64,000 nucleotides of DNA from Dehalococcoidia bacterium (GTDB lineage Bacteria > Chloroflexota > Dehalococcoidia > Lucifugimonadales > JADFKI01). Under the pieces are notes generated by a model that was not told the origin of the DNA, searched no databases, and was given only the letters and a program-made list of their open reading frames with translations. The position numbers were made by a program, and so were the translations under genes. The number at the start of each line of letters is the position of its first letter. Position 1 is the first letter of the stretch. The DNA lies in assembly GCA_965200085.1 (NCBI GenBank), contig OZ241333.1:547704-611703 (forward strand). The letters are read 5' to 3'. This document shows, piece after piece, positions 1,431-62,509 of this stretch.

Positions 1431-2120
1431 CTAGGTGGTTGAAGATAAGATGCCTCGCATCTGAAGCAGCACCAACAGATTGTGCTCACTCCAGCCTGTT
1501 CCCATTCGCTCCCTCCTCCTCAACTCCCTATGATGACGTTCCAACCTAGATGTTGTCTTGTATTCGCCATATCCACTTCTCAGATACGCTAATCCCTGCT
1601 TTATCGCCTTCACACCAGTAGCTTGCTCTGCCTCTCGTCAACTCCCTCCCTAACTTCCGCGCTTGCGTTACACTTTCAGCATTAAGCAGCTCTTTCGCCA
1701 GACCAAACCCTAACTTTCCTATGTTCCTCCGGTACTCCCTCAACAGATGAAACTGACACAACTGATGACTCACTACTCTTCCATACACCATACTCACTGC
1801 CGATCCTATCGACCTAAGTTGCCAGTCTCATCGCCTCTTCTCGCGTTTTTTGAGTACCGTTTCCCTCGATCCACACTCCCTATCAGCTCCATCCCGCTCC
1901 CCATATCTCCACAGTGAGTGCAGCGAAACACAGGCACTCTCAATCTGAGCTCCCCGTACTTTGAGACTATAAGTCTGCTGTATGAGTGATGGCGAGCCAT
2001 TGCTATGTTGCAGGATTCACACATTACTTTGTAGAGATCAAGCGCTGACTGCAGCGCTTCTTGCATCTGGCTTGTGATTGTTCTATCTGCTGCTTCTTCC
2101 AACCGGTACAGCATTCCCAT
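1431..2120 (-). pseudogene. Fragmented, internally deleted transposase, tentatively IS256/Mutator-like
   Basis: There are three consecutive minus-strand pieces. Piece 1806..2120 has RLIVSKYGELRLRVPVFRCTHCG. Piece 1546..1797 has QLCQFHLLREYRRN. Piece 1431..1613 has TSRLERHHRELRRRER..W, a typical transposase C-terminus. The pieces are in different frames and total about 250 aa, too short for an intact enzyme. Confidence 0.5.
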
Positions 2121-2181
2121 CGCAACACCTCTACTAGAGTTTATTGCACATATTAGACTTTTATCCACCTGATTGGAAACG

Positions 2182-3864
2182 CTATCTTGGAACTGCGGTT
2201 GGCTCTCTCGTAGGAATTGCTGTTGGTTCAACCGTCGGCGCAGCTGTGGGCTCAGGTTCCGGCGCTGCTGTCGGCGTTGCAGTCGGATCGCCATCGCACG
2301 CAGTATCGTTCGTTACACCAGTGAGGTCGTCTTCGCTCACACGTATCCGCAGCATCAGCAGGTCGCCAGACTGCCACGGCTGCTCGCACACCTTCCAGAT
2401 CATCGTTCGAGTGCTGCCTTCATCGCTCACAGACGCATCATCAAAATCCAGACGCAGGCTCACAGAGCCGTCCAGCGCGATGAAGTCTATGTGGTGGTTT
2501 GCGAGCGCAGGCGTATCACTTATAGCTATGGATACTGCGTTATCTTGCCAGTCTATTCGCTCTATCGTAGTAGCATCGTCGCTGCCGTTCACGGAGAACG
2601 CTGCTGGCTTCAGCACACCGTTCACACTGTCAGCGCCCACGACATCTCCTCCAAGTGACACCGGATCAAAGAACGCCTCGTGCAGTGTGCCAGCAGGAGC
2701 GGTTACCATTATGTTCCAGTGCGAATGGGGCTCTTCAGGAACATAATTACACGGGAACCACTCATACAGTTCATTGTGCCAGCTCACGCTGTAGCTGCCC
2801 TGCGCCACGGGACGCTTCGTGCGTGTTACGAACTCGTAACCTGTCTTTGGGTCGTTGTCCTCATCCTCGGTCACTATCTCGAACAGATGCGCATCTTTCC
2901 CTGATAGATAGTCCCTGTCGTATTCTTCGCCGTGGGCACTGCCCTTGCTGATTACGTTTTCGTCTCTGAGTCTGACAGGGCTTCCTGCCGGCAGCCCCGA
3001 TGCAACCGCATCCTCTCTGGTAGATACGCCCGGACGGTTTACTCTGCTGAAGTGGAACTTTGACAGTATGCACTCCTCAAAGCCCTCTATGTGAGCGTTG
3101 TCCTTCAGAAGCTTGTCCATAGCCTTGATCCTGTCTTTCAGCTCAGACAGCGACACTGATGCGCCGCTCGAAGCCGTGTCAAACCTTGTGTCAGGCGAGT
3201 TGTGCGGCGCATCACCCAGAAGGTAGCTTTTCATACCGTCCGCAGACTGTATCTCCGGAGCTGAGGATGAGGGCAGCCAAACCCTGTTGACATCGCTCTC
3301 AATTGAGTAATGCCTAGATGCGTAACTGTACCACCGCTCTTTAGGCAAGAAATTGAAATGGTTAGACCTCGTCAGACCTTCCCGATCTTTCAGCCTTGCA
3401 AGGTCTTCAGAGTCAATCCTCTTCAGAAAGATAATGGACTCCCTTTCCTCCCACCAGCGCTCTGCCGGATCGTGATAACCGTCTGCACCAGTAATCCAGT
3501 TCTGCGCGACAGAAAGCACTTTCTGCTCATCAAATCGTACATCATAGGTGCGACCAAGCAGCACATCGGCAAACAGCACATCAGCACCCTCGCCCTTCAA
3601 GTACTCGTGCACCTCAAACCTAAACCTGACTATATCGTCAAAAATAGGACCTAAGTCGGTCTCCGACTTGCTAACATCGGCAGACGCCGATAGCATCGTT
3701 GCGCGTGCGATGACATCGGCGCGCAACACACGTTCGTCCAGCGTGATAAAGCCGCTATATATATGAGCCAGCTGCTGGTGCCTGTACCGGTACTTCTGTT
3801 TCAGACCGGGATATTTCGATATTTCCATCTGTACATGCAAGCGTAGCCGCAGCGAGCAGCACAA
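2182..3864 (-). CDS. Large secreted or surface hypothetical protein with a C-terminal Pro/Thr-rich linker; the 5' end is probably frameshifted
   Basis: This is a 560-aa ORF with no domain I recognise. It ends in the linker GDPTATPTAAPEPEPTAAPTVEPTAIPTREPTAVPR directly against the transposase fragments, suggesting 3' truncation. The signal peptide is in another frame upstream (3755..3913). Confidence 0.6.
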   Translation of the reverse strand: MCCSLRLRLHVQMEISKYPGLKQKYRYRHQQLAHIYSGFITLDERVLRADVIARATMLSASADVSKSETDLGPIFDDIVRFRFEVHEYLKGEGADVLFADVLLGRTYDVRFDEQKVLSVAQNWITGADGYHDPAERWWEERESIIFLKRIDSEDLARLKDREGLTRSNHFNFLPKERWYSYASRHYSIESDVNRVWLPSSSAPEIQSADGMKSYLLGDAPHNSPDTRFDTASSGASVSLSELKDRIKAMDKLLKDNAHIEGFEECILSKFHFSRVNRPGVSTREDAVASGLPAGSPVRLRDENVISKGSAHGEEYDRDYLSGKDAHLFEIVTEDEDNDPKTGYEFVTRTKRPVAQGSYSVSWHNELYEWFPCNYVPEEPHSHWNIMVTAPAGTLHEAFFDPVSLGGDVVGADSVNGVLKPAAFSVNGSDDATTIERIDWQDNAVSIAISDTPALANHHIDFIALDGSVSLRLDFDDASVSDEGSTRTMIWKVCEQPWQSGDLLMLRIRVSEDDLTGVTNDTACDGDPTATPTAAPEPEPTAAPTVEPTAIPTREPTAVPR

Positions 3865-3913
3865 ACAACAGAAGATTCACTAGATTTCGTACAACTTCAA
3901 GCACATATGCCAT
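3755..3913 (-). CDS. Short ORF encoding a signal peptide with a lipobox-like end; likely the original 5' end of the 2182..3864 gene
   Basis: Hand translation from ATG at 3913 gives MAYVLEVVRNLVNLLLFVLLAAATLACTDGNIEISRSETEVPVQAPAAGSYI*. It is in a different frame from the 560-aa body, and the frames meet at the tatatatat run at 3756-3764. Confidence 0.5.
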   Translation of the reverse strand: MAYVLEVVRNLVNLLLFVLLAAATLACTDGNIEISRSETEVPVQAPAAGSYI

Positions 3914-3934
3914 CTCATATTCCTCTGCTTAACT

Positions 3935-5404
3935 TCAGTGTGAATGCGAGCTGCTTGGATAGACCTGCTTCATCGCATCTATATCTCGCGTTTTAGGATT
4001 AGTTACAGCATCCTGACCTAGTTGGGCTTCGAAATGCATCAGGTTATCACTGTCAGGGTCGTGTCCTAAGCCAGCAACATGCCCAAACTCATGCGCCATC
4101 ACACCCGGTAGGGAAAAATGGTCAGGTTTAACATTAGGATCATCGTCCCAATTATAGGAATCATTCTGCAGGTCATCGTAGTACATATGCTGATATGTGA
4201 TGTGTGGGCTGGTGGTGGAATCGTACCAACTGTTCACACAGGCTAAAGCAGGGGTGCCACAAGGGTTTTTATTACTGTTAGCTCCTAAATTGGGATCAAA
4301 CAGGTATTTAGTATATTCCCATTGCTACGGCCATTATTACAAATACCAATAATAGTATTGTCGTCTTTCACCACTCGAAGCCTATTGGAAGGCATCACGC
4401 TGTTCCACTTGTCTGCGCCACTGTCTATGGAAGCTTCGTAGTCAAATCCGGCAGGATGCGAAGGCGGGCTGCCGCATATAAGATACGAAATACGCTTATC
4501 GTGATGGTGCGGTGCGCGAGGAATAGTCAGGGGCGCAAATGTGTTTGGCTGATATTCATTATCGAGGGTCGTTGTAATGGTCAGTTCCGAACTTCCATCG
4601 CCAAGCCTGCAGCGCACCAAGTTGAACTCTACTGATATAGATCCGCCGGTGCTGGTTATGGATTTAGACCTTGTCCTTTGGGACGGCGGCGGCTGAGAGT
4701 AGTTGCACCAAGCGTCTGAGGATGCCGCTATGTCCATTCCTGAGTTGGAAGGCACACTCAGCGTGAACTTATAAACCCCTTTTGATGTGTTAGTTGATGA
4801 TACTTTGACCGTAATTGTCTGCAGAACTGGGAAATAGTTATAGATTGATAAGTTTGATGCATTATCTAGCGCCTTGCCATCTACATGAGTAACTTGCACA
4901 CTGATTGGAAAAGGCGTGGCGTGGCTGTTGGTGTAGGTGTGGATGTTGGCAGAATAGTGGTCACATGAGCTGTCCAGGCAGAATAGGAAAGACCATTTTT
5001 ACTTCTTATTCTGTGATAGTAGGTATTACCATTCGTAAGATCACCTACTACTGCTTCTGTTGCGTCGGTGAAGGTTATCGTGTAGTTGCTGTTTCCTTCG
5101 GAGAACGGCAGTATATTCCAATCAGCTTTATTGTTGGGACATATCGATGCCTTGCCGCACCACTGCTGCACATCGTAGCCGGTGGCATTTGTGACACATC
5201 GTTCCAGTCAAGGGATATACTTCCGTTGCCTGCTGTGCCAGTCAAACCCGTAGGGATTGTCAGTGATGGAGGTGTTGGGGTATGCGTGGCAGTAGGATTA
5301 GTGGGCCAGCTAGGTGTAGGTGTGGCAGTAGGGGTAGGAGGTATCGGTCCGTAAACTGTAGGAGTGGGAGTAGGTGTATGAGTGGGTGTACGAGTAGGCA
5401 GCAT
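3935..5404 (-). pseudogene. Degraded secreted FN3-domain metzincin (M10/matrixin-like) protease gene, split over four frames
   Basis: Pieces 5404..5075, 5171..4881, 4899..4285 and 4237..3935 read through one another. The FN3 domain is split (GNGSISLDWNDV | TNATGYDVQQW...NGNTYYHRIRSKNGLSYSAW). It contains PT linkers and the zinc site HEFGHVAGLGHDPDSDNLM (HExxHxxGxxH plus Met-turn). It starts inside a PT linker next to an IS remnant, so the 5' end is also missing. Confidence 0.65.
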
Positions 5405-6833: not shown

Positions 6834-7954
6834 CGGTTATTAACTCTCCTTAGCATCTGCTTGCGCTCTGCCATGAGCCTATCAAGCTCGACTCGGTTTT
6901 CTGCAACCTTCGCGTTGCAGGTCTTGCAGTAATTGCTGTCCACTGCCTTCGCATGTTTCGGCTTTATCTCTAGGCAGCCTGAGCAATGGAAGTAGTCGCA
7001 GTCGCCGCAGAACCTGCCGTCGATAAGCGAGTACGACTTTGCGCCGCAGCTCTCGCAATAACCGGGGCTTGCCTTCTGCTGCTCCGTGAAGCCGTCCTGC
7101 ACACAGCGCCGTAGAACTGCCAGCGCGTAGCCGTGATAGCTCTTTTCAGAACTCTGAGCCTCGTTGAGTGCATAGGTTATAAAGTCTTCGGGTATTTCTG
7201 CGCCTTCGTTCTTCGCCATCCACTCTGCTTCGATCTCCTTCGCGTCTTGTCTCTGAATCCGCGAGAGCGGCGGGGCATCTTTCATCCTGCGAAGCTGTGC
7301 GTTGATCTGCTGAACTATCGTGGAGTCGGCGGCGACTGCGGCAGCCAAATCAGCCTGAGTTGGCGTGGTTTTTGCCGCTGTGTTCTGATTTTTGGCGGAA
7401 TTTCGCTGCTTCTTGCGCGCCGCACGGGATTTCTTGCGCTTCGGCTGCGCTGATTGACGGCTCGGGACGTGCTTATCCGCCGGCTTTTCTGTCGTCTGTT
7501 CTTTTTGAGCCTTTGCGGGCGGTTTGAATACCCTGCCGCGCCTCTCGGAAGTCCTGCCTGTGAGGTCTTCTACCTGCGCTTCAAGGACGCTGATGCGCTC
7601 CTTGAGTTCTCGAACCTCCCGGGTTTCCGACTTACTGTCGGAGACTGGAGATTCGGCTTCAGGCGGTGGTCTCTTCCTGCGGATACTGTCGGATTTCTTC
7701 TCGGCTATCTCACTGACATACAGCCTTTTCTTCTCTTTTGTGAAGATAACATCCAGACGCATCCGCCAACGTGTGCGCTGTGTGTACTGATTTCGGGCGG
7801 TATAGACCTTCTCTAAAAGGTCGAATTTGCCCAGCTCCGTCAGGTAATTCTGGAAGGTTCTGTAAGTCGTTCTGAGGTACGAATAGACTACGGATCTCAG
7901 GATGTAGAACTCACCGTTCTTTATCTGAAAGCCTGTATAACAGTCTATTACCAC
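6830..7954 (-). CDS. Replication-type protein: N-terminal wHTH-like region, basic/coiled middle, DnaD-like segment and C-terminal Cys-rich zinc ribbons; probably 5'-truncated
   Basis: YALNEAQSSEKSYHGYALAVLRRCVQDGF resembles the DnaD/phage replication-organiser C-terminal motif. It also has CESCG...CGDCDYFHCSGC...CKTC cysteine clusters. The frame is open upstream of the GTG at 7954 (..GLTAAQRDALS..) with no start codon and runs into the GH32 stub. Confidence 0.5.
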   Translation of the reverse strand: MVIDCYTGFQIKNGEFYILRSVVYSYLRTTYRTFQNYLTELGKFDLLEKVYTARNQYTQRTRWRMRLDVIFTKEKKRLYVSEIAEKKSDSIRRKRPPPEAESPVSDSKSETREVRELKERISVLEAQVEDLTGRTSERRGRVFKPPAKAQKEQTTEKPADKHVPSRQSAQPKRKKSRAARKKQRNSAKNQNTAAKTTPTQADLAAAVAADSTIVQQINAQLRRMKDAPPLSRIQRQDAKEIEAEWMAKNEGAEIPEDFITYALNEAQSSEKSYHGYALAVLRRCVQDGFTEQQKASPGYCESCGAKSYSLIDGRFCGDCDYFHCSGCLEIKPKHAKAVDSNYCKTCNAKVAENRVELDRLMAERKQMLRRVNNR

Positions 7955-8208: not shown

Positions 8209-8961
8209 TCATTCAACGAACCGACCGAAAACAAAGAAACTCACATAAGCCTCTAAAGAGTTGAACTTGGGAAACTTATGTTGGGCTAGTTTCCGCCAAA
8301 ACTTATTCGCCTCTCGCAATTCAATCGACTCTGCTGCGTGGATAAGTTGTATATTGGGGTCTTCTCGGTAGAACCACTCAGCAAAATCGTCTTTCATTGC
8401 TAACCTTAGCTGCTTAAATGAGGGTAAGGTAGTCCAAGGTTTCTTTTCTGAAAACCAATCCGCACTACTTCCGCCGCTCCTATAAAGTTCGTACACAACA
8501 GGTATAAATAATTCAAAGTGAGGGGCTTTCAGGTGAGGTAGAATCTTGCTCTCAATTTGCGCAATGTCGGTTTGAACACTATTCGAAGATCGCTTATCAG
8601 GATAGAGTTTAGTTCTGATTCCATGCAAATCAATAGATATCCTATTCTGATCTCTTGAATGGCTGTTAGCAACCATTCCTTTGGATTCAATGGCAACAGC
8701 AATAGTATTATCACGAATCATACATAGATCAATCTTTTTCTGCACTCCTTTTGGATATTCTGACTCTATGGAATATCCACTGAACTTATCGGACAATGCC
8801 GATTTGATAATTGCATTCAGCGATCCTTCATAACGAACGGCTTTTGCTTCGGTGGCAATCTTTTGCGTAAGTGCGGTGTTTGCTTCACCTCTAATTCGAT
8901 CTTCTGCTAACCTAAATGCATTTTGTAATGTTTCCACAGAAACTGGAAGTATGGGATTCAT
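8209..8961 (-). CDS. Orphan hypothetical protein with a PD-(D/E)XK-type nuclease motif, in an AT-rich segment
   Basis: The 250-aa ORF has KKIDLCMIRDNTIAVAIESKG, giving D78-x13-E92-x-K94, with acidic residues (ESEYP) upstream. The DNA is clearly more AT-rich than its neighbours by eye. Function is inferred from the motif only. Confidence 0.45.
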   Translation of the reverse strand: MNPILPVSVETLQNAFRLAEDRIRGEANTALTQKIATEAKAVRYEGSLNAIIKSALSDKFSGYSIESEYPKGVQKKIDLCMIRDNTIAVAIESKGMVANSHSRDQNRISIDLHGIRTKLYPDKRSSNSVQTDIAQIESKILPHLKAPHFELFIPVVYELYRSGGSSADWFSEKKPWTTLPSFKQLRLAMKDDFAEWFYREDPNIQLIHAAESIELREANKFWRKLAQHKFPKFNSLEAYVSFFVFGRFVE

Positions 8962-9095
8962 GTGTTTTCCTCAACAAGTAACATATTGATTTATCATATT
9001 CATTCAACAAAACGAACTGACCTCTCGTATGATAACAAATGCCAGCCTTACATTTTGGCGCGCTGCTTGGCAGAGCAGGAATGAGCCGCGTGCCG

Positions 9096-9560
9096 CTACG
9101 ACTCAAGAAGAGGGTTGATCCCTCTGACATTGATGCCGTAATCGAATACCAGATCGCCGCCGGTCATCCCGGACATCGTCAGGAAGCCGGTCCCAACAAG
9201 GATAACGGCAAGGTATATTATTGATCTGCCCGCGTCCGAGCCTCTCCAGCGGGAGATCGACCTCCAGACTACCAGTGCGATGAAGAGGGCGGTTGTTGCG
9301 AAGCTCCAGTTCTGATGAGTATCTATGACGTTGTGTACGGGAGTGCCCTCGTATGCTTCGTGTCCTATAATCCCAGTTATGCTTGCTGCGATTGCCCCGA
9401 CAGTCCCTATCAGAAGCAGCACCCAGGACGCCTGATTCATACTGTCGCTTCCTCGCACACGCACCCAGATGCTTAGCGCCGCGCTCACAATGAGAAGAGC
9501 GATAGGGAAGTGGACTATGATGGGATGTATGTCTGTAATCGTGTCAGAAATTATATCCAT
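9096..9560 (-). CDS. DUF2231-family integral membrane protein
   Basis: It has the N-terminal signature IHPIIVHFPIALLIVSA and four predicted TM helices in 154 aa. Confidence 0.7.
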   Translation of the reverse strand: MDIISDTITDIHPIIVHFPIALLIVSAALSIWVRVRGSDSMNQASWVLLLIGTVGAIAASITGIIGHEAYEGTPVHNVIDTHQNWSFATTALFIALVVWRSISRWRGSDAGRSIIYLAVILVGTGFLTMSGMTGGDLVFDYGINVRGINPLLES

Positions 9561-9805
9561 TCGTAACCTCTCCGCTGTATATGAGTTCTACCTTGCTTGC
9601 GTACAAAGTAAGAGAACTTTGAGGGCTGCCTAAAGATATAACGATGGGGAGTTGCAATGGTTAGGCTTAGGCTCTGCTGTTGAGGTTATCCTGACTTGAA
9701 ATCTTGCTTATGAAAATATGTCGCCTGTCGGATTTATTCTCCCTTCTCAAAGGAATAGGACGACTGGGAACTGCACCGCTGGAATATCAACCCCAGCCTA
9801 GGAAC

Positions 9806-40608: not shown

Positions 40609-40798
40609 TATCGCCTCCATCTGAACTTACTTTTTCCATGCATAACACATCAGTATGAAAGATGAAAGTTATTTTACACGAATAAGCGCTATACGCCGTA
40701 CAGCCGCAACCCGTACTGTAATACACCATTCATACATATTATCGTCCTCTGTGGTAATATAAGCCTTGTGAAATCCAAACCAATACGAGGTGATATGC

Positions 40799-43060
40799 AT
40801 GACAACAATGATACCCCAGGAAGAATACAAGGTCGTCGGCACGCGCCCCGTGCGGCATGACGGCGTTGACAAAGTAACCGGCCGCGCCCTCTACGGCGCC
40901 GACATGAACCTCGCCGGGCTGCTGCACGGCAAAGTTCTGCGCAGCCCGCACGCCCATGCGCGCATCAAATCCATCGACACCAGCAGAGCCGAAGCGCATC
41001 CCGATGTCAAGGCGGTCGTTACATCCGCCGACTTCGCTCCTATGTCGCCTATTCCTCAGGTCGCGCGACAGGGTGTTCCCATCGCCGAAAACGTCCTCGC
41101 CAAGGACAAGGTTCTCTACAAAGGACACCCCATCGCCGCAGTGGCGGCAGTCAACCCGCATGTCGCGGAAGAAGCGCTCGCGCTCATCGATGTGGAGTAT
41201 GAAGTGCTGCCCAGCGTGTCAAACGTCGAGGACGCTCTTGAACCGGACGCGCCCGTACTGCACGAGCACTGGATAGAGCGCGGTGGCGACGGTATCATCC
41301 CCGCAAGCAAGAACATCGCCGACCACGAACAGCACATTTTCGGCGACATTGAGGCAGGTTTCGCCGCTGCTGACAGGGTGTTCGAGCGCGAATACCGCAC
41401 CAAAACGGTGCATCAAGGCTACATCGAGCCGCACACTGCCACCGCGCTCTGGACAGCAGACGGCGCGCCAAACGACCGGCTCACCATTTGGAGCAGCAGC
41501 CAAGGCCACTTCGCCATGCGCGACAGCACAGCCGAAGTTCTGGGCATTCCGAACTCGCAAATCAAAGTAATCCCGATGGAGATTGGCGGCGGATTCGGCG
41601 GCAAAACGCTCGCATACCTCGAAGCCGTATCATCGGCGCTCTCCCGCAAGAGCGGCAAGCCCGTCAAATCAACAATGACGCGCACGGAAGTCCTCGAAGC
41701 ATCCGGTCCTACAGCCGGCGGCTACCTGAAATGCAAAATCGGTGTAACTGACGAAGGGCGCATCACCGCCGCCCAGATTTACTTCGCCTTCGAAGGCGGC
41801 GCATATCCCGGCGCGCCATTGCCCGGCTCTTCCGCCGCCGTCTTTGCTCCATACTACATCGAAAATGTCCGTATCGACGGCTACGACATCATGACGAACA
41901 AACCCAAGACAGCAGCGTACCGCGCTCCCGGAGCACCAATAGTTTGCTTCGCGTCCGAAAGCCTTATAGACGAGATTGCTCAGTCGCTCGATATGGATTC
42001 CGTGGACTTCCGACTGCTGAATGTCGCAACTCCCGGCACGCGCAGAGCAGACGGCGTACTAAACGGCCCCATCGGCGCAAAAGAGACAATGGAAGCCATC
42101 AAAGCGCATCCACACTACAACACTCCGCTGGAAGGCGCAAACCGAGGACGCGGCATCGCAATGGGATTCTGCCGCAACAACTCCGGCATGGCATCCGCCA
42201 TCGCCAACGTCCTCTCCAACGGCACCGTCAGCCTCATCGAAGGCAGCATGGACATCGGCGGCTCGCGCACCGCAATTGCTCAGATGTTCGCCGAAACGCT
42301 CGGGCTGCCAATCGAAGATGTCATACCCACCGTCGGCGATACCGACTCCGTAGGCTACACATCCACATCCGGCGGCAGCGGCGTAGCCTTCAAATCCGGC
42401 TTCGCAGCCTTCGAAGCCGCAAACGACGTCAAGCGTCAGTGCATCCAGCGCGCCTCCATGCTCTGGGAAACCGACGAAGACCAAGTCGAGTATGCGGACG
42501 GTGGACTGCGCCACAAGTCCGACACCGAACTCACCATGTCCTTCAAGGAAATCGCATCCCGCATGCCCGAAACAGGCGGTCCAATAGTCGGCAGGGCAAA
42601 CATGAACCCTGGCGGCTCCGCAGGCTCGTATGCCGCCAACATCGTGGACATCGAAGTTGACCCCGAAACCGGCAAAGTCGAGATTCTGCGCTACACCGCC
42701 TTCCAAGACGTCGGCATCGCAGTGCATCCCAGCTACGTCGAAGGGCAGATACAGGGAGGCACGGTGCAGGGTATCGGCTGGGCGCTCAACGAAGAGTATT
42801 ACATGAGCGCAGACGGCGCCATGCTTAACAGCAGCCTGCTCGACTACCGCATGCCCACCGCGCTCGACCTGCCCATGATAGAAGCCGTCGTGCTAGAAGT
42901 GCCCAACCCGGCGCATCCATACGGCGTAAAAGGCGTCGGCGAAGCCAACATAGTTCCGCCACTCGCCGCACTCGCCAACGCCATCCACGATGCAGTCGGC
43001 GTCCGCATGTACGATCTCCCCATGAACCCGCAGGCAGTAACAGCAGCAATCGCCGAATAA
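40799..43060 (+). CDS. Molybdopterin-binding large subunit of a xanthine dehydrogenase / aldehyde oxidase / CO-dehydrogenase family hydroxylase
   Basis: It has VGTRPVRHDGVDKVTGRALYGAD, HQGYIEPH, GGGFGGK, YRAPGAP and GVGE..IVPP motifs in about 750 aa. No Fe-S or FAD subunit gene is adjacent. Confidence 0.88.
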   Translation: MTTMIPQEEYKVVGTRPVRHDGVDKVTGRALYGADMNLAGLLHGKVLRSPHAHARIKSIDTSRAEAHPDVKAVVTSADFAPMSPIPQVARQGVPIAENVLAKDKVLYKGHPIAAVAAVNPHVAEEALALIDVEYEVLPSVSNVEDALEPDAPVLHEHWIERGGDGIIPASKNIADHEQHIFGDIEAGFAAADRVFEREYRTKTVHQGYIEPHTATALWTADGAPNDRLTIWSSSQGHFAMRDSTAEVLGIPNSQIKVIPMEIGGGFGGKTLAYLEAVSSALSRKSGKPVKSTMTRTEVLEASGPTAGGYLKCKIGVTDEGRITAAQIYFAFEGGAYPGAPLPGSSAAVFAPYYIENVRIDGYDIMTNKPKTAAYRAPGAPIVCFASESLIDEIAQSLDMDSVDFRLLNVATPGTRRADGVLNGPIGAKETMEAIKAHPHYNTPLEGANRGRGIAMGFCRNNSGMASAIANVLSNGTVSLIEGSMDIGGSRTAIAQMFAETLGLPIEDVIPTVGDTDSVGYTSTSGGSGVAFKSGFAAFEAANDVKRQCIQRASMLWETDEDQVEYADGGLRHKSDTELTMSFKEIASRMPETGGPIVGRANMNPGGSAGSYAANIVDIEVDPETGKVEILRYTAFQDVGIAVHPSYVEGQIQGGTVQGIGWALNEEYYMSADGAMLNSSLLDYRMPTALDLPMIEAVVLEVPNPAHPYGVKGVGEANIVPPLAALANAIHDAVGVRMYDLPMNPQAVTAAIAE

Positions 43061-43101
43061 AGCCGCCGAACATCGCCCTAAGTCCTGTGTACTAACATAT
43101 C

Positions 43102-43134
43102 GGGGACGGCTTTCAAGCCGTCCCCGTTTGCTTG
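43102..43134 (+). terminator. Rho-independent terminator after the hydroxylase gene
   Basis: The hairpin is GGGGACGGC-TTTCAA-GCCGTCCCC, followed by GTTTGCTTG. Confidence 0.6.
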
Positions 43135-43261
43135 CAATTCCACCAGCATTCCATAGCGAACGAAATCTTAAGCAGAGGCATTTTTGTACTGATAGCTGCG
43201 AGATTTTGCCTATATGATAATAGATCACATTTTCGCAAATGTGCTATGATGCAAGTAGAAT

Positions 43262-44107
43262 GTGAGAAGTATAGAAATGCAAATCAACAGCACAGGCGAA
43301 ATGCAAGTAATTACCACACCAACCTTTGACTGGCTCGCCGAACAGGCAATGGCTTGCAAGTCGCGGATGCTCATCGGAAGCCCTTATGTCAATGACGGAA
43401 TCACCGACTTAACAAATCTAGTCCCGGGAAAAGTATCCCGAACGCTCATCACACGCATGGACTTGCGCAATTTCGCCGTTGGCGCATCCAACCTGGATAC
43501 ACTTTGCGCCTTGGCGCAAGACGGTATAAGAATCCGCAGTTTAAGTAATCTTCATGCCAAGATATACATTTTCGACGACAAATCTGCGTTGGTTACTTCT
43601 GCGAACGCTACATTCTCCGGTTTGTACCGCAACCTCGAATGTGGAATAGGGCTATCAGACAAACCCGTCGTCGAGCAGCTGGCGGATTCGTTGTTGACAG
43701 GGTTCGGTACGGAAACATCCCCTTCTTGTCCATTGAAATTAGACGAGCTTGAATCTCTGCAAATACCTCTAAAAGCCATCAAAGCATCATTGCCACATCA
43801 GCCTCGTGAAATCTCCGAAGGCGACAATCCACCTACAGTTGACGCAGAGTTCTCCATATCTGACCCAAAAGCCCTGTTAGAAGGGTTCAGCGGATGGCAG
43901 AAACTCACATTGAGAGGGGTGTTGGCGATGCCGGAGGAGGGATTTGTACTGGACGAATTGTTTAATGTATGTGCGCCTATAGCAAAAGAGGAATATCCGA
44001 ACAACCGCAATGTCCGCCCAAAACTGCGTCAGCAGCTCCAAATGCTGCGTGATTTGGGGCTAGTAGAGTTTGTAAGCCTCGGACGATATAGGCGCACGAT
44101 GAGCTAA
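43262..44107 (+). CDS. Single-HKD phospholipase-D-family (Nuc/BfiI-type) nuclease with a C-terminal winged-helix-like domain
   Basis: The HKD motif is LHAKIYIFDDKSALVTSANATFSG (H98 at 43553-43555, K100, D105/106, N115). The C-terminus NRNVRPKLRQQLQMLRDLGLVEFVSLGRYRR resembles wHTH tails seen on restriction-type nucleases (recall only). The start may be ATG 43277. Confidence 0.75.
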   Translation: MRSIEMQINSTGEMQVITTPTFDWLAEQAMACKSRMLIGSPYVNDGITDLTNLVPGKVSRTLITRMDLRNFAVGASNLDTLCALAQDGIRIRSLSNLHAKIYIFDDKSALVTSANATFSGLYRNLECGIGLSDKPVVEQLADSLLTGFGTETSPSCPLKLDELESLQIPLKAIKASLPHQPREISEGDNPPTVDAEFSISDPKALLEGFSGWQKLTLRGVLAMPEEGFVLDELFNVCAPIAKEEYPNNRNVRPKLRQQLQMLRDLGLVEFVSLGRYRRTMS

Positions 44108-44155
44108 ACAAAGAGTCGATCTGACGTCGAATTAGTTTTAATGCGAGGATGGCAT

Positions 44156-44365
44156 ATGGCTACCCAAAATTCCAGATACGCCTGCCCCCACTGTGGAAGT
44201 AATGAGGTGAGAGGGGATTTCGATACATATCCAGTTTTTCTTGCAGAGGGGGATAGGCTCGTTTATCAGCGATTAGAGTCCACTCACGCAGGAGTGTTGG
44301 AACTCTATTGTAATTTTTGTCATGAATTGATAACTGATGACCTGGATGATGTGCTAATCGAGTAA
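44156..44365 (+). CDS. Small zinc-ribbon protein (about 69 aa)
   Basis: CPHCGS ... CNFCHE form two CxxC pairs 43 residues apart. It is tightly spaced between the two nuclease genes on the same strand. Confidence 0.55.
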   Translation: MATQNSRYACPHCGSNEVRGDFDTYPVFLAEGDRLVYQRLESTHAGVLELYCNFCHELITDDLDDVLIE

Positions 44366-44408
44366 AGACTTCACTGCTACCAATTCGAGACCGATTAGGA
44401 AGCCTCAC

Positions 44409-45197
44409 ATGCCACACTTTCCACCGCCCATGACACAGAGATGGAACGCGATTCTTGAACGACACGAAATCGACAAGCACGATTTCGACAACGCGCCATT
44501 TACTATATCATCCAAACAAATAGGCAAGGCTTGTCAAAGCTTCCCAAGGCCAAGCCAAAAAGAAGCACGAATCTTATGCAAGCACGACACCAGAGAGTCG
44601 CGCCCTCAAGCCTTCCGCGAGAGAGGTCTTTTTATTCTGCCTGTCAAAAATGGGCATTATGTTATCGTCAAAGGTGAAGGATATACAGATGTTCCGCCGA
44701 TTCGCTCCCCGTTGCTTGAATATCGTAGTGAATTCCCCTTTGAACTGGAAACAACACAAGTCGGTAACTCAGAGATGCAGCATCTTGACAGAGCTTATGC
44801 TCAGAGTTTGATTCGCCATTTTACTGGCGACGAATCGTTGGTGCTAACCATTCGGGGTAGAAAATACACCGGCGAATTCGAGTTCGTAACCGGCGAATTT
44901 CAGATTAATGTGGAGAGCGTTCAAACCGAAGTTGACGCAGGTTACGAAGGCGAAAATCAAGTTGTATTAGTCGAGGCAAAAAGCGGAACCGCCACCAACA
45001 CAATCATCAGACAACTCTACTATCCGTTTCGGCAATGGCAACAGCACACGACGAAGCCGGTTTCTACACTTTTCTTTCAGCGTACGGCTGGAGACGAACA
45101 CCACATCTGGCACTTCGGATTTGACGACCTGAATGACTATAACAGCATCCGCCTACTGAAGTCCGCCCGCTACAAAATCATCCTTCCGCATCACTGA
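44409..45197 (+). CDS. PD-(D/E)XK restriction-endonuclease-like protein
   Basis: EVDAGYEGENQVVLVEAKSG gives D176-x12-E189-x-K191, followed by IIRQLYYPFRQW. The N-terminal EARILCKHDTRESRPQAFRERGLFILPVKNGHYVIVKG resembles N-termini of predicted type II REases (recall, unverified). AGGAAG lies 6 nt before the ATG. Confidence 0.55.
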   Translation: MPHFPPPMTQRWNAILERHEIDKHDFDNAPFTISSKQIGKACQSFPRPSQKEARILCKHDTRESRPQAFRERGLFILPVKNGHYVIVKGEGYTDVPPIRSPLLEYRSEFPFELETTQVGNSEMQHLDRAYAQSLIRHFTGDESLVLTIRGRKYTGEFEFVTGEFQINVESVQTEVDAGYEGENQVVLVEAKSGTATNTIIRQLYYPFRQWQQHTTKPVSTLFFQRTAGDEHHIWHFGFDDLNDYNSIRLLKSARYKIILPHH

Positions 45198-45212: not shown

Positions 45213-45755
45213 CTACTGCTGCTGCGCGAACCGGCGGTATATCTCCTCGTCGCTCAGCGCTTCTCGCCCGAACCACTTATCCTCAATAACCTGTCCCGCG
45301 TCCGCAATCCTTCCTATCACCGCCGTCGCCACATCTATAACCCGCTGCGGCGAATCAAGCTCATCCACAGGCAGCCCTTCCACCTCCAAGACAGCCTCAG
45401 TCAGCGCGCGCATCAGCTCCACAGGTGCAACTTGCGTCGCCGATAGCCGCGCCTTAAGCAGGCTCTGCATCACAGACGAACCCGAGTTACGCAGCATCAG
45501 CTCTGCCGCCACTTCAGCCCTGTTTTCAACCTGCACACCCAGCGAACTAGCCAGATCGCACAAGCAATTCACAAGCGTATCCGCGCTTCCGCCCTCACTC
45601 GCTGCCTGCTTAGCAGCAGTGTCCATAGCACGCGCTATGCTCTCTGCGCGCTCCAGCCAGCGCCCTAGCCAGATAAGGTTGTACGCCCTAGCATCTGTCA
45701 GCCAGTTATCCCTCGCGACGCTTATCGAGCGCGGCTCCGCCATCACTTGAATCAC
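45213..45755 (-). CDS. Short alpha-E-domain protein (180 aa)
   Basis: NLIWLGRWLERAESIARAMD matches the alpha-E N-terminal signature (W.gRylERAe..aR). Typical family members are much longer (about 300 aa by recall). Confidence 0.6.
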   Translation of the reverse strand: MIQVMAEPRSISVARDNWLTDARAYNLIWLGRWLERAESIARAMDTAAKQAASEGGSADTLVNCLCDLASSLGVQVENRAEVAAELMLRNSGSSVMQSLLKARLSATQVAPVELMRALTEAVLEVEGLPVDELDSPQRVIDVATAVIGRIADAGQVIEDKWFGREALSDEEIYRRFAQQQ

Positions 45756-60310: not shown

Positions 60311-62509
60311 TCAACCGTCCCGCACTATCCCCAATTCATCTATGTATGGCGATGATGCAGAACCTTGCCCCAAATGCTTGTCCACCAGCATCACAATCCG
60401 AGCTTTTGCCCGTGTGAACGCCACATAAAATACACGCCGTTCTGCCTCCATCTGTTCAGGAGTTTTTGCATTTCGGTTTGGCCATATACCATCCACTACA
60501 TCGAGCAGCACCACAGTATCAAACTCTTTGCCTTTAGCGCGTAAAGCTGTCATTAAGTGCAAAGGATCTTTCCAAAGATTATCTTGGTTGCCGTCATCCT
60601 CAAATGGTGGAACATACAAAAGTGTACGCTTAGCAAGCATCACAGCATGAACGAATGAATCGTAATCTTCGCCGTATCGTTCTGCATATTTCGCAAGCTG
60701 TAGGAAAGGTGGATCCGTGTAGAAAATATCTTCTTCAGCTTTGCCCATATCATAGTGCAAGCCTTCGAAACAATCGCTTAATGTGTGAAGTGTATCTGCT
60801 ACTGTATGAGAACTAACGAAATCAGATATAGCATCAGCCATTTCAATGCTCATTTGGCGTCCGTGGTTTTTGCCTTTAAGTTCTCCATCATATTGCTCCA
60901 GGGCTTCTATTGCAGACCTTATATCTCTGGGGAAGGCTTGATGAAGATGCCTAAGCACCCCTTGTTTGTTTTTCCTATTCAGCGGGTAACGCTTCACCAA
61001 ATCGCATAAATCTACTATATCATTTACTATTTGACCACTACTTTGACGACCTAATGAGCGTGCTTTAATTTCCAAAAGGTTAAGTAAGCGGTCAAAAGTC
61101 TTACTTAGAAAAACTTGCAAATCTTCTGCGGCACAAAAGGGAACTTTCTTTGATGCAAAATATACTTGATACGGGATAATTTGGCTCCGCTTGCGTCCGA
61201 TAATTGCAACACGACTCGGACTGCCGCCCGCCGCTGTCGTCTCTTTTACTAGGTTATGCACATAATCGAGTGATTCTTCAAATCCGCTGGTTTCGATGAT
61301 GTCAATAAGGGCAGAATCACGGCTGGATGCCTTTATTTGCTTGGGCACCCTTCGTCCGTTATGTTCAATCAACATCTGAGAGTGGATAACAACATTCGCA
61401 GGTGAACGATAGTTTACACCAAGAGTATATGTCTTGAACTCAGTGCCAAAGAATTCTTCCGGGTTAAGAATATACTCAGGTGTTGCTCCACGCCATTCGA
61501 ATATTGCTTGGTCATCATCCCCCGCTATGGTCAGTGTGGCTCGATTGCGCTCGACAATAGCTTTGACCAATGCTAAGTCTAATGGATTAATGTCTTGAAA
61601 CTCGTCAACAAAGATATGGTTGTAGCTCGCAGCACCTGAAAGGCGTCTGCCTTCCTCTACATTCTTGTACTCATCAAGGTAAGCGTAGTATTTCTGATCC
61701 TCCAGCGTAAATGTAGCGCTCTCTATTAAATGCGCCGTAGAATCTCGCCAAAATCTAAAGAAGGCATTATATACTTTGCGCTTGTTCCCTATGGGAACTT
61801 CCTGCCTATCTTCAATGATTTGGCTGTCAAGTACATCTAGCTTGGTTAGCTCGTTGCATTGCTCTTCCAGCCGCCAACCCAAACCCTGCCGTACCAACTC
61901 ATCCCAATGCTTGGCAAATTTCTGATAGTTCGTATGTCGAACATGATCGAATCCAAGTGACTTGAAAGCATCTATTGAGTCCATCAATTTTCTCGGCGAA
62001 TTGCGTTGAGTCCATGAATTCTTGTTTATTGCATCTCGAATGCTTGTGTGCTTCTGCCATATAGGCTGAAGCTGATTCAACATTGCAAAATGATAATCAT
62101 CTTTCGATGTGATTAACTTAGGATAGGAAGAGACATTTTTAATGCGCCTGAAACCCCAAGAATTCAGCGTAGTAATCTCGACAAAATCTCGTATGGAGGA
62201 AAACTCGAAGTCTTCGTTAAGCCTCGTTGTAAGTTCCTGTTGTGCTGCTTTAGTGAAGGTTACTATTAAGAAACGCAATCTGCGGGGCCGAACAAGATTG
62301 GACGCTTTATCCGCAAGGTATTTGCATATGTACAGCAGGCAGAGCGTCTTACCACAACCTGCCGGAGCAAGCAATCTAATATTGTTCGTAGAAGGCGCTC
62401 TGCAAAAATTCCTTTGGGATACATCTAACTGTTCTAGCAAACTAATCCTCCTTAACAGAAATATAACCACGGAGTTCGCTAATCTATTGATAGCGTCATC
62501 CCTATCCAA
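60311..62509 (-). CDS. UvrD/Rep-like superfamily-1 helicase (732 aa) in a clearly AT-richer segment
   Basis: It has Walker A LLAPAGCGKT, motif II IFVDEFQDINPLD, GDDDQAIFEWRGA, VNYRS, and C-terminal KGKEFDTVVLL and VAFTRAKARIVML. The TTG start lies 1 codon after the stop of the upstream small ORF. Confidence 0.85.
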   Translation of the reverse strand: MDRDDAINRLANSVVIFLLRRISLLEQLDVSQRNFCRAPSTNNIRLLAPAGCGKTLCLLYICKYLADKASNLVRPRRLRFLIVTFTKAAQQELTTRLNEDFEFSSIRDFVEITTLNSWGFRRIKNVSSYPKLITSKDDYHFAMLNQLQPIWQKHTSIRDAINKNSWTQRNSPRKLMDSIDAFKSLGFDHVRHTNYQKFAKHWDELVRQGLGWRLEEQCNELTKLDVLDSQIIEDRQEVPIGNKRKVYNAFFRFWRDSTAHLIESATFTLEDQKYYAYLDEYKNVEEGRRLSGAASYNHIFVDEFQDINPLDLALVKAIVERNRATLTIAGDDDQAIFEWRGATPEYILNPEEFFGTEFKTYTLGVNYRSPANVVIHSQMLIEHNGRRVPKQIKASSRDSALIDIIETSGFEESLDYVHNLVKETTAAGGSPSRVAIIGRKRSQIIPYQVYFASKKVPFCAAEDLQVFLSKTFDRLLNLLEIKARSLGRQSSGQIVNDIVDLCDLVKRYPLNRKNKQGVLRHLHQAFPRDIRSAIEALEQYDGELKGKNHGRQMSIEMADAISDFVSSHTVADTLHTLSDCFEGLHYDMGKAEEDIFYTDPPFLQLAKYAERYGEDYDSFVHAVMLAKRTLLYVPPFEDDGNQDNLWKDPLHLMTALRAKGKEFDTVVLLDVVDGIWPNRNAKTPEQMEAERRVFYVAFTRAKARIVMLVDKHLGQGSASSPYIDELGIVRDG

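Follow-up and report, generated by a model that had tools for sequence, protein, structure and literature searches.

A candidate mosaic restriction islet in a Dehalococcoidia genome: a PLD-winged-helix nuclease, a zinc-ribbon protein and a type II restriction endonuclease without an adjacent methylase

An AT-rich islet of three co-directional genes

We analysed a three-gene cassette in a 64-kb stretch of DNA from a Dehalococcoidia bacterium (contig OZ241333.1; the whole stretch is called the window, and positions are counted from its first letter). The cassette encodes two predicted nucleases and, between them, a small zinc-ribbon protein. All three genes lie on the + strand, and the longest open reading frames (ORFs) extend over 43262-44107 (ORF1, 281 aa), 44141-44365 (ORF2, 74 aa) and 44409-45197 (ORF3, 262 aa), with intergenic gaps of 33 nt between ORF1 and ORF2 and 43 nt between ORF2 and ORF3. 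Going by database gene calls and ribosome-binding sites, the more likely starts are the ATG at 43277 for ORF1 (43277-44107, 276 aa, instead of the GTG at 43262) and the ATG at 44156 for ORF2 (44156-44365, 69 aa). A ribosome-binding site precedes each of the genes, no convincing terminator was found inside the cassette, and the three genes look co-transcribed. Two weak sigma-70-like promoter matches 5´ of ORF1 (43189-43261, + strand; 9/12 each, from a consensus scan alone) mark a probable cassette promoter.

The GC content is 0.46-0.48 across the cassette, compared to 0.59-0.61 in both flanks. The left edge of this islet is an intrinsic terminator (43101-43126, + strand; an 11-bp stem, 9 of its pairs being GC, followed by a T-rich tail) belonging to the upstream gene at 40790-43060, which Pfam matches (MoCoBD_1/2) identify as a molybdopterin xanthine-dehydrogenase-family hydroxylase (Xdh). 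The right edge is a convergent Alpha-E gene (45213-45755, - strand; Pfam), which ends 15 nt past ORF3, is the first gene of an Alpha-E/transglutaminase/CP-ATP-grasp operon and is part of a synteny frame that is conserved in relatives. According to Pfam, the cassette neighbours are metabolic genes. An initial annotation, made from the letters of the window alone, had described three tight, co-directional genes in an AT-rich stretch, with a hydroxylase gene and its own terminator on one side and a convergent Alpha-E gene 15 nt away on the other, and this layout was borne out in each respect.

In comparisons with relatives, the ratio of nonsynonymous to synonymous divergence (dN/dS) is 0.05-0.15 for the three genes (0.05-0.17 for ORF2), and the families to which they belong comprise about 500 clusters (ORF1), 57 representative clusters (ORF2) and more than 3800 clusters (ORF3). 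Given that dN << dS and that each belongs to such a family, the cassette genes are more than chance ORFs. We found no methyltransferase gene in the 64-kb window, out of a 2.83-Mb genome, by tblastn with both classes of partner methylase described below, a scan for (D/N/S/T)PP(Y/F/W) and a scan for C5-methylase motifs. A 732-aa ORF at 60311-62509, with a DPPF motif and weak tblastn matches, was considered as a hidden methylase and rejected, being a UvrD-type helicase gene. It is the sole helicase gene in the window and lies 15 kb from the cassette, so the earlier statement that no methyltransferase or helicase is found nearby also held.

The two nucleases and their predicted recognition sites

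ORF1 combines an N-terminal single-HKD PLD nuclease domain (PLDc_2, 3e-11, residues 30-142, ~nt 43349-43687) with a C-terminal DpnI-type winged helix (DpnI_C, "Dam-replacing HTH", 6e-15, residues 211-277, ~nt 43892-44092), and its tail aligns with residues 190-256 of DpnI (4esj, E=8.6e-5). The HKD motif reads H98-x-K100-x4-D105...SAN, with the H, K, D and SAN residues invariant among 13 homologues. In DpnI, E228, K229, R231, Q232 and Q235 lie within 5 Å of the two N6-methyladenine (6mA or m6A) methyl groups and also contact bases (PMC3424567). At the aligned positions ORF1 reads P-K-L-R-Q-Q-L-Q, such that four of the five pocket residues are kept and the E is replaced by P; the K/R/Q/Q pattern (K-x-R-Q-x-x-Q) is found in 68 of the 81 ORF1-family members that were fetched.

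This PLD-winged-helix (PLD-wH) architecture has been described for 27 genes, as a kind of type IV restriction enzyme that depends on m6A (Helbrecht et al., 2024, PMC11037411). The enzymes were reported to be too toxic for expression alone, and neither of the two tested, Aba4572I and CbaI, could be purified. CbaI stems from a Chloroflexi bacterium, adjoins a "restriction endonuclease" gene and showed Dam+-dependent toxicity in vivo (PMC11037411). ORF1 shares the single-HKD PLD domain, the DpnI-type winged helix and the methyl-pocket/GATC-contact motif with these enzymes and, like CbaI, occurs in Chloroflexota beside a predicted restriction endonuclease gene. The likeness is one of architecture, and the paper mentions no zinc-ribbon gene, unlike what is seen for ORF1. 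Judged by architecture and motifs, ORF1 is best placed as a further member of the published PLD-wH type IV kind, presumably dependent on Gm6ATC. Two copies of the single-HKD domain would have to come together as a dimer to build one active site (the case in Nuc and BfiI), the winged helix would read fully methylated 6mApT in the GATC context, and the enzyme would cut Dam-methylated invading DNA near the site, an activity suggested by homology and by the one published in vivo result for the family.

In PADLOC, ORF1 matches a DrmC-like PLD profile together with the C-terminus of mREase_II. The PLD domain scores best against the DrmC profiles of DISARM, and the similarity is limited to this domain. 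Membership of DISARM was rejected, with a score of 48.6 compared to the 133-bit equivalog cut-off and no DrmA, DrmB, DrmE or methylase genes present.

Other PLD-wH genes occur in several settings. At L132 (positions 3409-5129; L numbers designate the loci used for comparison), a Dam-class D12 methylase gene overlaps the PLD-wH gene by 4 nt, with the HKD and K-x-R-Q-x-x-Q motifs intact; L127 and L117 are further loci of this kind. The arrangement has the look of a classical restriction-modification operon. It suggests that methylation blocks some PLD-wH enzymes instead of being required by them, and such a subset would fit the odd published behaviour of Aba4572I. PLD-wH genes also lie beside ORF3-like restriction-modification (R-M) pairs (L130 and L151). 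In at least 11 metagenome loci, a small ORF of ~70-100 aa is located 0-20 nt 5´ of the PLD-wH gene (L089, L092, L095, L096, L100, L101, L102, L104, L105, L003 and L087). Nine of these carry "V(I/V)IE..GGVVQ...(L/I)DWD", and those at L003 and L087 form a separate cluster with the "DWD"-like part only. The small ORF is unrelated to ORF2 and absent from the window, and could represent another type of small protein partnering the toxic PLD-wH nucleases.

ORF3 (44409-45197, + strand) matches DUF6996 (~nt 44436-44666, 1e-21) and DUF6997 (~nt 44673-45176, 2e-49) in Pfam and the type II restriction endonuclease (REase) profile REase_II (PDLC03513, 1e-33) in PADLOC. Of its predicted PD-(D/E)XK residues, D176 is invariant, and at least 90% of the family keep E189 and K191; at 82 family-conserved columns the copy in the window does not deviate once. 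An AlphaFold2 (AF2) model of ORF3 (pLDDT 81) matches generic PD-(D/E)XK cores alone (Cas4-family ACE1, SSO0001, McrC and RecU; E ~2e-3, TM ~0.25), and specificity is thus not transferable from a solved REase. The sequence gave no match in the PDB, no homologue was found in the phage collection, and a literature search on DUF6997 retrieved no papers. The HKD motif of ORF1, the four cysteines of ORF2 and D176...E189-x-K191 of ORF3 had all been pointed out before; they are present and conserved in homologues. The earlier reading of the two nuclease folds agrees with these motifs and profile matches, though for ORF3 the fold search recovered only the generic cores, and the helix-turn-helix-like tail assigned to ORF1 is real.

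The genomic context of ORF3 homologues was examined at 80 loci from many phyla and four more recovered via the zinc-ribbon gene, 82 of which were usable. In about 73 of the 82, a co-directional gene for a ~300-aa adenine methylase lies 0-20 nt upstream, classified by Pfam as either N6_N4_Mtase (β-class) or MethyltransfD12 (Dam/DpnM-like). The best solved relatives of these methylases are CcrM for the β-class (8e-53) and DpnM/Dam for the D12 class (1.6e-52). In some loci the two classes flank the REase gene (D12-R-β or β-R-D12), as in the MboI gene order and the two-methylase systems of the MboI and DpnII kind, and the β-methylase of these loci is 44-48% identical to the Dehalococcoidia one. 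Distant plasmid homologues of ORF3 (28-34% identity, ~435 aa) also adjoin an annotated "DNA adenine methylase". By homology, ORF3 is the REase of a methylase-ORF3 pair and would function as a classical type II enzyme whose methylase gene, for a Dam/DpnM-like or an orthologous β-class enzyme, is missing here.

The target of ORF3 is probably GATC, with cleavage blocked by m6A, based on the types of partner methylase, the MboI-like operons and the avoidance of GATC by the hosts. In 1.05 Mb of pooled ORF3 loci, GATC is the lowest of the 256 4-mers, with an observed/expected ratio (O/E) of 0.47 and roughly uniform flanking bases. The per-locus median O/E is 0.36 in ORF3 loci compared to 0.63 in ORF1-only loci (p=8.6e-5), and the window has 153 GATC sites (O/E 0.47). 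GANTC, considered because of the CcrM-like β-methylase, is a less likely target; it shows no avoidance (O/E 0.86-0.92), no 4-mer is avoided more strongly than GATC, and the orthologous β-methylase shares operons with DpnM-like enzymes. The ORF3 family resembles the MboI/DpnII-type systems in its partners, which are DpnM/Dam-like D12 methylases, N6 methylases of the β-class or the two together (also in the MboI M-R-M order), and in the GATC avoidance of its hosts. Unlike in those systems, the REase is not homologous to MboI/DpnII (no PF04556 match), DUF6996/DUF6997 have no characterised or solved member, and the window lacks the methylase.

Two further arrangements were noted at ORF3 loci. A complete DpnI-family gene (PF06044 and DpnI_C, with a KIRQQLQ motif) is located just 3´ of an intact β-methylase-ORF3 pair at L031 (positions 8850-9643). 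In addition, a paralogous pair, here denoted R'-M', often lies just upstream of the main cassette (L010, L016, L011, L033, L167, L172 and L151), forming tandem related R-M systems; R' shares ~23-26% identity with ORF3, and M' ~25% with the β-methylase.

Hotspot alleles and the zinc-ribbon gene

The window and six other loci (L004, L011, L033, L164, L166 and L167) share an Xdh gene (87-93% identity) and/or the Alpha-E/transglutaminase/ATP-grasp flank. The right flank is common to L011, L033 and L166, with L167 sharing the transglutaminase/ATP-grasp part only, and the left Xdh flank is found in L004 and L164; upstream, L004 and the window have RraA and Xdh in common. The content between the flanks differs. 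It is methylase-ORF3 in L004 (which shares only the Xdh side), ORF1-ZnR-ORF3 in the window, where ZnR denotes ORF2 and its homologues, and X244-ZnR-ORF3 in L166. L011 and L167 have an R'-M' pair followed by X244-ZnR-ORF3, with ORF3 truncated in L167. L164 has a split ORF1, ZnR and DUF3800 and no ORF3, and L033 has X244, a chimeric ORF and a frameshifted ORF3. In the chimeric ORF (L033, positions 7641-7922), the ZnR N-terminus (…PKYVCPNCGS) is fused in frame to the C-terminus of a β-class methylase (ASTGVVAL…), which is direct evidence of recombination between ZnR-type and methylase-type alleles. Judged from these comparisons, the cassette is an allele of a locus that by default holds an R-M pair, and its methylase gene would have been replaced.

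X244 is a 241-244-aa protein with an N-terminal winged-helix-like region and an NmeDI_C nuclease domain, with a weak PADLOC match to REase_II (6.6e-6). It holds the position of ORF1 in sister alleles and is also found upstream of methylase-ORF3 and alone with ZnR (L009, L021, L008, L011, L014, L018, L025, L166, L167 and L173-175); the X244-ZnR-ORF3 arrangement occurs in at least six genomes. The exact order ORF1-ZnR-ORF3 recurs in L165, where ZnR and ORF3 are separated by 9 nt, in line with an operon, and the order ZnR-ORF1-ORF3 is found in the TARA/Logan contigs L001 and L002, all of these recurrences being confined to close relatives. Elsewhere the two nuclease genes are found apart, with an ORF1 homologue beside ORF3 at 0 of 80 ORF3 loci and an ORF3-like gene, always a distant one, beside an ORF1 homologue at 2 of 80 ORF1 loci. 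The ORF1 and ORF3 families are not a conserved pair.

These data bear on the proposal of the initial annotation that the triad is an undescribed type of defence system in which all three proteins act together. The tight, co-directional, operon-like spacing, the same gene order in L165 and the presence of all three genes in L001/L002, the purifying selection on each gene and the analogous X244-ZnR-ORF3 arrangement would be in line with such integration. However, members of one nuclease family overwhelmingly occur where the other is missing, the default partner of ORF3 is a methylase, the slot upstream of ZnR is taken by unrelated nucleases, ZnR can have another nuclease as its only companion, the triad members decay independently, and every triad belongs to a single narrow lineage or hotspot. 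We consider an integrated three-gene system very improbable, and the proposal did not survive as made, given that the PLD-wH architecture has already been published and ORF3 belongs to a common REase family with a methylase neighbour. The accompanying caution, that a methylase might be the normal neighbour of ORF3 and the triad be conserved nowhere else, was right on the first count; on the second, the triad does recur in a few close relatives.

ZnR (ORF2; 44156-44365, + strand) is an acidic protein (isoelectric point 4.0-4.7) with cysteines at C15, C18, C57 and C60, and the CxxC...CxxC pattern is conserved across homologues. An exhaustive profile search recovered a family of 57 representative clusters, nearly all of them stand-alone proteins of 60-130 aa. 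There was no significant family match in Pfam, PADLOC or PHROGs and nothing usable in NCBIfam, and a weak match to Lar (E=0.16) was discarded since it covers the CxxC motif only. The best Foldseek match of the AF2 model (pLDDT 66) is the MqsA N-terminal domain (3ga8), which is non-significant at E=0.4. An MqsA-type antitoxin was considered and rejected for a protein of just 69-74 aa that has no helix-turn-helix and whose top fold match comes at E=0.4 on a low-confidence model.

ZnR genes are found in several contexts besides the triad. They follow ORF1 homologues without ORF3 (L084 and L164) and X244 alone (L173-175), and ZnR-like genes also accompany ORF3 homologues in methylase-containing operons of other phyla (L083 and L066). 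An operon at L172 (positions 1617-4204) encodes R' (a DUF6996/6997 paralogue), an N6_N4 methylase, a BglII-family endonuclease and a ZnR homologue; with the BglII-family enzyme, another REase fold whose site family has a GATC core is found ahead of a ZnR gene. A strict rule by which ZnR is present if and only if the methylase is absent was ruled out by the ZnR-like genes of methylase-containing L083, L066 and L172. A further homologue (profile E=3e-14) at L171 (positions 4001-4225) lies amid small ORFs with MPTase-PolyVal, RHH and HTH_17 genes, in a region that looks like part of a phage or conjugative element. The description that fits ZnR best is that of an uncharacterised accessory to nucleases of the restriction type.

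We also compared the fate of ORF3 copies without a methylase, scoring each copy at 82 columns with at least 97% conservation in the methylase-linked set. Among nine methylase-less copies, the one in the window shows 0 deviations and the others show 1, 2, 3, 3, 5, 5, 12 and 13, compared to a mean of 0.57 and a maximum of 4 for methylase-linked copies (p=1.8e-5; p=6e-4 when the conserved columns are defined on other phyla only). The catalytic substitution E189K is found in L001 and E122V in L025, and other copies are frameshifted (L033), truncated (L167) or absent (L164). The methylase-less copies form a decay series, and orphaned ORF3 is often being lost. As a test of relaxed selection after methylase loss, dN/dS was uninformative, with dS saturated.

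In one reading of the zinc-ribbon gene, ZnR acts on one or both of the neighbouring nucleases as a stoichiometric inhibitor or immunity factor, replacing methylation as self-protection, with ORF3 released upon infection or loss of ZnR; together with ORF1, the operon would then attack GATC-containing DNA in both methylation states. The protein is small and acidic, sits in the methylase position directly upstream of ORF3 and is encoded in every methylase-less ORF3 locus (the window, L165, L166, L008, L011, L014, L018, L025, L001/L002 and L167). It is damaged in L001 (frameshift) and L167 (one cysteine pair lost), precisely the two loci that combine a dead ORF3 (E189K and truncation, respectively) with an intact upstream nuclease. 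Other nucleases that lack a methylase are likewise followed by ZnR-like genes, namely X244 and the ORF1 homologues mentioned above, the L171 homologue is found with polyvalent-protein-type genes in a mobile-element-like region, ORF3 is under purifying selection between two triad genomes, and the reported toxicity of PLD-wH enzymes on their own (PMC11037411) would also be in line with a restraining partner. However, the loci are phylogenetically close, so that the correlation between ZnR and the lack of a methylase may go back to a single ancestral event or a handful of them. The methylase-containing operons also include ZnR-like genes, ZnR is intact in L164 though ORF3 is gone, neither sequence nor the low-confidence model shows similarity to a known inhibitor, and many methylase-less ORF3 copies decay despite ZnR. 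We therefore regard inhibition by ZnR as distinctly unlikely. If true, it would define a new class of restriction-nuclease partner, by which a GATC-cutting REase is kept without methylation beside a Gm6ATC-dependent nuclease and GATC-containing invaders are restricted whatever their Dam state, or by which loss of ZnR leads to abortive self-cleavage; the zinc-ribbon family could thus hold a new kind of restriction-enzyme regulator.

A probable mosaic islet and its apparent self-conflict

On balance, we favour the view that the cassette is a mosaic restriction islet of known parts at a defence-gene hotspot, and not a single three-component system. The parts are a published PLD-wH enzyme type and an orphaned type II REase, and the small zinc-ribbon gene is the novel accessory among them. 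Alternative alleles occupy the interval between Xdh and the Alpha-E operon (methylase-ORF3, X244-ZnR-ORF3, ORF1-ZnR-ORF3 and decayed versions), and the ORF1-ZnR module may have replaced the methylase gene in an allelic swap of the Dam-replacing type that left the REase gene behind. Two alternatives offered by the initial annotation fit this view, since a modification-dependent, type IV-like enzyme is supported for ORF1 and a remnant of an R-M system that lost its methylase is supported for ORF3. If the mosaic reading is true, the locus is a snapshot of defence-gene turnover in which a Dam-type methylase was swapped for a methyl-adenine-directed nuclease, and the visible decay series of the orphaned REase would be useful for understanding natural escape from R-M addiction. 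It would also give the DUF6996/DUF6997 family, with its more than 3800 clusters, a first functional context and a probable GATC specificity, and ORF1 would extend the barely characterised PLD-wH family.

The swap has counterparts in the pneumococcal DpnI/DpnII cassettes and in drg/NmeBII of Neisseria meningitidis, where one site likewise alternates between a GATC R-M allele and a nuclease with a DpnI-type reader. In those cases the two states are mutually exclusive, whereas the window and L165 keep an intact, predicted methylation-sensitive ORF3 beside a predicted methyl-adenine reader. The nuclease domains also differ, being PD-(D/E)XK in DpnI and drg and PLD in ORF1.

This co-residence raises a conflict. 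No methylation state of GATC in the host would be safe, because ORF3 would cut unmethylated GATC and ORF1 would cut Gm6ATC. With an intact ORF3 in what looks like a shared transcript, the host would be left with two options. Either a methylase encoded at a distance modifies GATC, and ORF1 then has to spare the host pattern, or ORF3 is kept harmless, for which the acidic zinc-ribbon protein is the obvious candidate. Possible resolutions are a distant methylase combined with an ORF1 that is not self-directed, restraint by ZnR, differing specificities of the two nucleases, or a very recent orphaning of ORF3.

The first of these resolutions amounts to a separated R-M system, in which a distant cognate GATC methylase protects the host, ORF1 is methylation-blocked or reads another methylated motif, and ZnR is an unrelated small regulator. 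Precedent comes from a survey of 272 solitary REases, among which 57 had a predicted distant methylase, 99 were fragments and 116 were unexplained (Ershova et al., 2012, PMC3488263). A fully intact and apparently co-transcribed ORF3 would be expected under such protection, and the R'-M' pair just upstream of the ZnR cassette in L011 and L167, the PLD-wH genes in operons with D12 methylases (overlapping by 4 nt in L132; also L127) and Aba4572I, which has an adjacent amino-methylase and showed lower toxicity in Dam+ cells (PMC11037411), point in the same direction. On the other hand, the window contains no methylase of any class, the subfamily to which ORF1 belongs (at least 38% identity) has no adjoining methylase, ORF1 keeps the Gm6ATC-reading motif, and CbaI, from the same phylum, showed toxicity that depended on Dam (PMC11037411). 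The decay of sister ORF3 copies likewise suggests that protection or maintenance is not the rule. We hold a separated R-M system to be unlikely. Like the solitary REases of the survey, ORF3 is full-length without a linked methylase and has relatives that are fragments or inactivated copies. What differs here is that the replacement, a methylase-bearing allele and the decay series are all seen at one hotspot and that a specific small protein always accompanies the orphan.

Several observations weigh against the mosaic reading or its parts. ZnR accompanies ORF3 at each locus that lacks the methylase, a hint that the two may be functionally linked. An intact triad is kept in L165 at saturated dS relative to the window, with a dN/dS of 0.07 for ORF3, which argues that ORF3 is maintained, and not merely left over, in that lineage. 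The GATC specificity of ORF3 is deduced from partner homology and site avoidance, and the best PDB match of the β-methylase is CcrM, a GANTC enzyme. The methyl-dependence of ORF1 is made less certain by Aba4572I, which was more toxic in Dam- than in Dam+ cells and has an amino-methylase gene adjacent (PMC11037411), and by distant PLD-wH homologues that share operons with Dam-class methylases (L132 and L127). Finally, the methylase-ORF3-DpnI arrangement of L031 is an apparent self-conflict if the methylase makes Gm6ATC, and the window is thus not unique in the co-residence of apparently conflicting enzymes.

Other sites are also depleted in the 64-kb window. GGCC (O/E 0.18; 50 sites compared to 273 expected) and ACGT (O/E 0.30) are both more strongly avoided than GATC, and several 6-mer palindromes are absent, three of four having expected counts of just 1.6-3.4. 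Such depletion points to the action, present or past, of further restriction systems on the genome.

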